The notes under the pieces are model-generated. The model did no database searches. It saw only the letters and a list, made by a program, of their open reading frames with translations, and was not told where the DNA came from. A DNA stretch of 64,000 nt, from assembly GCF_000026545.1 (NCBI RefSeq), contig NC_011601.1. One strand, written 5' to 3'. Source of the DNA: Escherichia coli O127:H6 str. E2348/69 (GTDB lineage Bacteria > Pseudomonadota > Gammaproteobacteria > Enterobacterales > Enterobacteriaceae). Position 1 is the stretch's first letter; each line of letters opens with the position of its first letter. Shown here piece after piece: positions 37,584-38,149 of this stretch. The position numbers were made by a program, and so were the translations under genes.

Positions 37584-37607
37584 GATTACCTCTGCATCCT
37601 GGCGCAT

Positions 37608-37826
37608 CTAAAGACTGGCTTTACAGAGTTCAACACGGTTTCTACCTCGTCTTTTGGCGATATACAGAGCTTCATCGGCTATTTGAATGAGGCGCTCATA
37701 GTCAGGATGACCATTAAACATGGCGGCACCGATGGAAAGTGAGAGGGCAATATCCTCGCCGTTTGCGGCTTTAAAATAATGTCGACCTTTATGGTTAAAC
37801 CGCAGGCCAAAATCAACCAAACACAA
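37608..37826 (-). pseudogene. dosC: dosC remnant: only the extreme C-terminal part of a GGDEF diguanylate cyclase remains
   Basis: 72-codon ORF (TTG) whose last ~55 residues KAANGEDIALSLSIGAAMFNGHPDYERLIQIADEALYIAKRRGRNRVEL match the end of a GGDEF domain; no GGDEF active-site motif or globin sensor; upstream 320 bp is AT-rich with stops. Confidence 0.6.
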
Positions 37827-38149
37827 CGTGCGAGATCGACTAACTGCACCATATTCTCCTGAAATATGAAGATATACTGAAAAGAAATAAGCGACTTAGG
37901 ACAGTTTCAATCTACGCTACTGTTCTTCAGAAGAGTATAGCTCATCGTAATTATTTTTCGGTGACAGCGAATATCGTATGTTTTTTCATATTTATACATT
38001 TTTATTAGGGGAATTATGGCTGTTTAACTAAGTGTGGTTAATTGCGTGGTTAATTTGACGTATTTAAGCATGATTGCTAGTGGGATAGTTCAAGAGGGTA
38101 ACAAGCCAGTGGGTAAAGCACCGGCTTGTTACAAAGTAAGAATGGGAGT

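Follow-up and report, generated by a model that had tools for sequence, protein, structure and literature searches.

The dosCP module of Escherichia coli K-12 encodes a cyclase together with a phosphodiesterase, namely the globin-coupled diguanylate cyclase DosC (DgcO, YddV) and DosP. At the corresponding locus of the EPEC strain E2348/69 the phosphodiesterase gene is present and the cyclase gene is absent, which raises the question of how dosC was lost and of whether dosP is still expressed and maintained alone. We addressed this question in a window of 64,000 nucleotides of the E2348/69 chromosome (NC_011601.1), in which all genes of the locus lie on the minus strand. The preliminary description of this DNA had stated that dosP is intact and that the strain lacks the DosC partner, and both statements hold: the 799 codons of dosP encode a protein of PAS-PAS-GGDEF-EAL architecture with heme ligands and EAL motif, and just a 72-codon ORF, devoid of globin domain and GGDEF motif, lies between dosP and digH (yddW). 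The distance from the dosP start to the digH stop (37584..38149) is 566 bp here, compared with the 1,383-bp dosC gene plus 363 bp of intergenic DNA in K-12.

Alignment with K-12 dosCP, the check proposed in the preliminary description, mapped the deletion to two breakpoints, A (531 bp) and B (~689 bp). Using blastn against the K-12 locus, we obtained three collinear pieces. The piece at 37400-37772 runs from the 5' end of dosP through the 24-bp spacer to dosC codons 407-460 with 99% identity, the piece at 37772-37815 consists of 44 bp internal to dosC (codons 216-229), and from 37819 onward the window follows the K-12 sequence, beginning at a point 46 bp before the dosC ATG. At the nucleotide level, the surviving dosC pieces share 98-99% identity with K-12. 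At breakpoint A the loss is in frame, comprises 177 DosC codons (230-406) and is associated with 1 nt of microhomology; it spans the remainder of the middle domain and the GGDEF catalytic core, including the RYGGDEF segment of K-12 DosC. Breakpoint B took away codons 1-215 with the ATG and the globin sensor, 45 bp of leader, the ribosome-binding site and the final 8 nt of yddY, the small gene upstream. This junction arose at 5 nt of microhomology (AATCA/TGATT), where three filler bases are found (37816-37818). In total, 1,219-1,220 bp are missing relative to K-12, and 68 of the 460 dosC codons survive. Recovery of a full-length dosC ORF by a few indel corrections was ruled out: with ~1.2 kb missing, no small number of indels restores it. 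The features of the locus are listed in Table 1.

Table 1. Features of the dosP-digH locus in the E2348/69 window, with positions counted from the first nucleotide of the window.
Feature	Position	Strand	Description
dosP (pdeO)	35184..37583	-	799-codon ORF, 2,400 bp; heme-PAS oxygen-sensing c-di-GMP phosphodiesterase (RefSeq annotation, Pfam)
Native dosC-dosP spacer, 24 bp	37584..37607	-	dosP ribosome-binding site AGAGG at 37593..37589; identical to K-12
dosC remnant 1	37608..37772	-	codons 407-460 plus stop; last third of the GGDEF domain; W458C relative to K-12 (blastn, translation, Pfam)
dosC remnant 2	37773..37815	-	43-44 bp, codons 216-229, DosC middle domain; W220R; fused in frame to remnant 1
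Filler bases at the upstream junction	37816..37818		three bases, ACC on the plus strand; adjoin the 5-nt microhomology AATCA/TGATT
yddY head	37819..37852	-	ATG at 37852, first 11 codons; last 8 nt including the stop codon deleted
Deletion-made 57-codon ORF	37679..37852	-	yddY start and ribosome-binding site AGGAGA (37860..37855); runs out of frame through the dosC remnants
72-codon TTG-start ORF	37608..37826	-	4 codons from the yddY region (other frame), then DosC 216-229 and 407-460
dosC(yddY)-digH intergenic region	37853..38149	-	kept; presumed native promoter region; 95-97% identity to intact-dosC strains
Candidate sigma-S type -10 element CTATACT	37940..37934	-	putative assignment; present in K-12 and carriers
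Weak sigma-70-like match	38041..38013	-	consensus scan
Inverted repeat just 3' of digH	38098..38132	-	opposite-strand self-match; putative terminator/insulator between digH and the dosP promoter region
digH/yddW	38150..39469	-	ORF list, RefSeq; gadC and gadB beyond
osmC-dosP junction	34996..35183		osmC at 34564..34995; ddpXABCDF absent

Translation of the 72-codon ORF shows that DosC residues D216-F229 are fused in frame to K407-L460, with the two substitutions W220R and W458C, and that four codons of leader sequence precede them. Residues 20-64 of this stub match positions 115-161 of the 161-position Pfam model of the GGDEF domain (E=5.7e-8), and residues 5-22 match positions 37-54 of 110 in the model of the DosC middle domain (PF21118); a globin match was not found by Pfam in the stub, and the GGDEF motif is likewise absent. 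The preliminary description had read the C-terminal part as the end of a GGDEF domain, the first ~17 residues as a different piece of DosC, and the sensor domain and GGDEF active site as missing. The Pfam positions, the assignment of the first piece to codons 216-229 and the deletion of codons 1-215 and 230-406 bear out each of these points. Since the stub lacks the globin domain and the GGDEF motif, its product cannot be a cyclase. No Shine-Dalgarno sequence was found upstream of the TTG, and the native dosC ATG was deleted together with its Shine-Dalgarno sequence. A 1-bp deletion at 37656 shifts the frame and rewrites the last 14 residues in ST131-type strains (5 of the 16 carriers of the scar compared); this frameshift and the missing translation signals led us to reject the 72-aa frame as a conserved small gene. 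Stub diversity amounted to 2 substitutions and 1 indel in 219 bp versus 21 changes in 761 bp of flanking non-coding DNA, a difference that at such little divergence gives a Poisson P of ~0.06, and there may be weak constraint on the stub sequence. Judging from these features, we concluded that the stub is most probably a non-functional pseudogene that would be unable to make c-di-GMP. At least 1000 contigs in public collections contain the 72-aa ORF, where it is named, for example, 'diguanylate cyclase' or 'Putative conserved protein [CFT073]'.

To how many strains does this scar extend? A 201-bp query across both junctions gave a one-piece match in 1049 of 5426 complete E. coli genomes (19%, about one fifth), which led us to reject an assembly artefact; in the other genomes the query splits into pieces within dosC. 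The N-terminal segment of K-12 dosC is present in 4353/5426 genomes and the GGDEF-core segment in 4302/5426, and dosC is intact in about 4300 of the 5426. Roughly 51 genomes possess the N-terminal segment but no GGDEF core. The carriers include E2348/69, NC101, CFT073, A0 34/86, O1:K1:H7 APEC and O25b:H4-ST131 as well as ST95 and ST73 strains; E2348/69, ST131, ST95 and ST73 represent what we take to be phylogroup B2 lineages. Both junctions are base-for-base identical in 16 carriers of distinct lineages with 8 dosP haplotypes, and the allele therefore stems from one ancestral event or pair of events. The dosC scar is thus a fixed, lineage-wide allele, and it is annotated already: in every carrier inspected, RefSeq lists its 165-bp tail as the pseudogene 'diguanylate cyclase domain-containing protein, missing N-terminus'.

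The surroundings of dosP vary as well. The six-gene operon ddpXABCDF, located between osmC and dosP in K-12, is absent from E2348/69, where osmC lies 189 bp from dosP, and dosP is hence flanked on both sides by lineage-specific gene absences. The osmC-dosP junction without ddp occurs in 1116/5426 genomes, slightly above the number for the dosC scar (1049); roughly 67 genomes without ddp are not carriers of the scar. APEC O2-211 (locus L021, NZ_CP006834.2, 1485..6986), presumably also a B2 strain, has no ddp and a dosP of the carrier type (6 nt from E2348/69 versus 59 for K-12) together with an intact dosC. Its digH allele is ~35 nt away from both the carriers and K-12, and its dosC allele is likewise equidistant. 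This strain represents either a basal lineage predating the dosC deletion or a recombinational restoration of the gene. In the carrier SC455, a soil isolate (locus L013, NZ_LR778146.1, 1..95), osmC is annotated as frameshifted. Other lesions were found elsewhere: in strain N25 (locus L022, NZ_CM165897.1, 3488..3748) dosP is deleted completely along with the 3' part of dosC, and a 'globin family protein' fragment remains beside ddpX, a larger deletion in STEC1587 (H130) has brought osmC next to the dosC upstream region, and strain EC2 (H41) has an IS1 inside dosC. The dosCP locus has been hit repeatedly by independent lesions across strains.

The preliminary description had further supposed that the native promoter of the module was probably lost with dosC. 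On this point the evidence is to the contrary: no more than 45 bp of leader fell to the upstream deletion, and of the K-12 dosC-digH intergenic region, which is 363 bp long, 318 bp are kept, including the yddY start; the K-12 counterpart is active in a reporter, and dosP is under purifying selection, as detailed below. The kept region measures 331 bp here rather than 318 because K-12 lacks 12 bp that other strains have. These 12 bp, at 38033..38045, are one copy of a GTGGTTAATTGC-like tandem repeat; since the other non-K-12 strains possess this copy, the K-12 laboratory reference is the variant one in the dosC/yddY promoter region. In MG1655 the ATG of yddY (b4746) is located 79 nt upstream of the dosC ATG. 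The 13-aa YddY protein was shown by chromosomal epitope tagging to be made in K-12 (PMC6001520) and was detected again, at a low level, in stationary phase (bioRxiv 10.1101/511675), so the dosC-side mRNA must start upstream of yddY. A YFP transcriptional reporter is driven, in a PhoQ-dependent manner, by the region upstream of yddY in K-12 (PMC11429745). The motif CTATACT (Table 1) appears to fit an extended -10 element of the sigma-S type. The search for promoter elements by consensus scan brought up a single weak sigma-70-like site, a yield that does not exceed that of shuffled sequence, and the literature searched contained no published transcription start site for dosCP. We found no terminator-like site between the promoter region and the dosP start. 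The new leader contains no known RNA family, its sole Rfam match being at chance level (E=0.55), and no structured RNA, as it folds like shuffled sequence (z-score 0.33). From the K-12 data and the retention of the sequence we infer promoter function after the deletion, and the retained region probably still fires.

The deletion also altered the reading frame that starts at yddY. The beginning of yddY is kept from its ribosome-binding site to codon 11 (37820), ATG included, with residues identical to K-12, and with the stop codon deleted the frame is extended to 57 codons; the normal ORF has 13 aa, or 20 aa in some strains, and ends before dosC. The 57-codon ORF contains the hydrophobic stretch CVWLILACGLTI, is open in 16/16 carriers in three sequence variants and is annotated once, as the hypothetical protein UTI89_C1704. 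In ST131-type carriers (L008, L010, L016, L019, L020) three substitutions fall within 7 bp (37833..37839, GTCGATCTC to GCCAATCCC) and change the yddY head by V5A, D6N and L7P; the 1-bp deletion at 37656 is found in these strains, too. The substitutions are so closely spaced as to suggest a multi-nucleotide change or recombination over a short tract. Strain A0 34/86 shows one amino-acid change in the 57-codon ORF, and in the ST95 lineage the yddY ribosome-binding site is mutated from AGGAG to AGGAA. Because the yddY tail varies from 13 to 20 aa among strains with intact dosC, its sequence suggests that yddY may be a leader ORF rather than a sequence-constrained protein. The 57-aa product is possibly a translated by-product.

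We then turned to dosP itself. DosP of E2348/69 differs from the K-12 protein in 11 residues, and Pfam recovers PAS-PAS-GGDEF-EAL; the protein retains the EAL motif and, in the 807-aa numbering, the heme ligands His77, Met95 and Arg97, as predicted for a functional DosP. The gene is full-length (2,400 bp) in 15/15 carriers sampled to cover their spread. The 8 dosP haplotypes among carriers differ by 23 synonymous and 8 nonsynonymous segregating changes, compared with a neutral expectation of 78% nonsynonymous changes (binomial p=9e-10), and pairwise dN/dS within carriers ranges from 0.06 to 0.23. These changes arose after the loss of dosC, and therefore purifying selection acted on dosP as an orphan, which in turn implies that dosP is expressed; DosP is thus predicted to be made in carriers. 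In the CFT073 reference (locus L012, NC_004431.1, 5210..7611) dosP is annotated as frameshifted, and compared with E2348/69 and NC101 it contains one extra base at nt 1313 and another at nt 2313. These frameshifts could be real decay or assembly errors from 2002, and they explain why c1918 is listed in older literature as a PAS-only 'DGC'. For the UTI isolate B-11870, a stop codon in dosP is reported (PMC5635171). With dosP decayed in some carriers, selection on the orphan gene is not universal. Deletion of c1918, the dosP locus, lowers biofilm formation of CFT073 in glycerol medium (PMC3484386), and an exogenous cyclase does not rescue this defect. Within dosP, at codons ~8-13 (37545..37562, minus strand), we observed a terminator-like hairpin, AATGCCGCCGATGGCATT, followed by a run of seven T residues; it is also present in K-12 and could be either a chance structure or an attenuation site.

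We consider an ancestral two-breakpoint deletion of dosC, which spared the promoter region and left dosP selected as a stand-alone gene, to be the best explanation of the locus, with a probability of roughly 0.8. In this scenario, an ancient deletion by illegitimate recombination destroyed dosC (dgcO/yddV), and the scar was passed on to about one fifth of sequenced E. coli. Left behind were the presumed promoter region, the truncated yddY leader ORF and the dosC-dosP junction with the dosP ribosome-binding site. As a result dosP lies ~270 nt downstream of the yddY start codon, in a promoter-proximal position, where the native dosCP promoter most likely still drives its transcription and its own ribosome-binding site its translation. 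DosP would then act alone, as an oxygen-sensing phosphodiesterase without a cyclase partner.

Three rival explanations were weighed, each of them much less likely. If the promoter had been deleted too, dosP would be transcriptionally orphaned and silent, and intact only for lack of time. Such a reading could point to the loss of the dosC start together with 45 bp of leader and the ribosome-binding site, to the simple sigma-70 scan with its one weak site, no more than shuffles yield, and to the broken dosP of CFT073 and, reportedly, of B-11870 (PMC5635171). However, the 318/363 bp of intergenic DNA that are kept include the yddY start, which in K-12 lies on the same mRNA, and the K-12 region upstream of yddY is reporter-active (PMC11429745). 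Strong purifying selection within the carrier clade, the full length of dosP in all 15 sampled carriers and the phenotype that the c1918 deletion gives in CFT073 (PMC3484386) also argue against a silent gene, and we regard this possibility as unlikely. We give somewhat less credence still to the idea that the remnant codes for a functional small protein, be it the GGDEF tail of 72 aa or the 57-aa product of the yddY start, so that the scar would be a new gene. The 57-codon ORF does have a strong ribosome-binding site (AGGAGA), a start codon used in K-12, an open frame in 16/16 carriers and the hydrophobic stretch CVWLILACGLTI, but it carries three clustered nonsynonymous changes in the ST131-type strains, its ribosome-binding site is mutated in ST95, and in strains with intact dosC the length of the yddY tail ranges from 13 to 20 aa. 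Moreover, with a divergence below 2% among carriers, open frames are expected by descent. Many annotations list the 72-aa ORF as a protein, and the substitution density of the stub is on the low side; yet this low diversity is not significant (P ~0.06), and the frame has a TTG start, no Shine-Dalgarno sequence, no catalytic GGDEF element and the ST131-type frameshift. Among the results given in the relevant portion of PMC3484386, no change in motility or biofilm is listed for the c1919 deletion in CFT073.

The least probable of the rivals, which we consider very improbable, proposes that the 165-bp dosC tail was kept for cis-acting signals to dosP (for instance an internal promoter, a site of processing or a context that enhances translation), and that the end point of the deletion was selected. 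Neither of the flanking losses reaches dosP, with 189 nt left between its ATG and the end of the dosC deletion and 189 bp between its stop codon and the ddp absence, and spacer and tail are nearly invariant among carriers. The conservation of the tail is not significant, however, no promoter-like or structured element was found in it (fold z-score 0.33), and a single ancestral event provides one end point and therefore no statistical weight for selection of that point. An ancestral dosC deletion with the promoter region spared and dosP selected as a stand-alone gene accounts better for the locus than any of these three.

Compared with K-12 dosC, the remnant occupies the same position between digH and dosP and has the same spacer and upstream leader, whereas the globin domain, the GGDEF motif, the start codon and the ribosome-binding site are missing. 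The truncated yddY shares the ribosome-binding site, the ATG and 11 codons with K-12 yddY but lacks its stop codon. The RefSeq/PGAP pseudogene of E2348/69, NC101, ST131, ST95 and CFT073 is the same sequence (100% identity for E2348/69), with the old locus tags c1919 in CFT073 and ECP_1486 in strain 536; it covers the 165-bp GGDEF tail alone, however, so that the 44 bp from the middle domain go unannotated, as does the truncated head of yddY. DosC is described as 'frequently absent' in natural E. coli (Povolotsky and Hengge, 2016, as cited in PMC5635171), and strain Tob1 shows the reported pattern in which DosP can stay where DosC is gone. CFT073 is reported to be without yddV by Spurbeck et al. 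(2012; PMC3484386), yet c1919, which is this stub, is counted there as a putative DGC unique to CFT073. The loss of dosC is thus real but already known and ordinary, and it is unsurprising to a specialist. The pertinent passages of PMC5635171 and PMC3484386 report the absence of DosC without breakpoints, yddY truncation or allele frequency; the two-breakpoint map with the yddY truncation, the frequency of 19% and the polymorphism evidence for selection on orphan dosP may count as incremental additions.

For practical purposes, the double junction is a clean lineage marker, and censuses of c-di-GMP enzymes in B2 strains should leave out the stub, which is mislabelled as 'diguanylate cyclase' in many deposited annotations. 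The breakpoint map and the purifying selection predict an orphan oxygen-sensing phosphodiesterase in ST131, ST95, ST73 and EPEC E2348/69. A bolder proposal, to which we assign a low probability, is that the yddY start drives a lineage-specific, partly hydrophobic 57-aa peptide, that orphan DosP has been selected behind the stress-responsive yddY/dosC promoter as an oxygen-responsive c-di-GMP sink, or both. If this were true, orphan DosP would contribute to the distinctive biofilm and motility behaviour of the ExPEC/EPEC B2 lineages.
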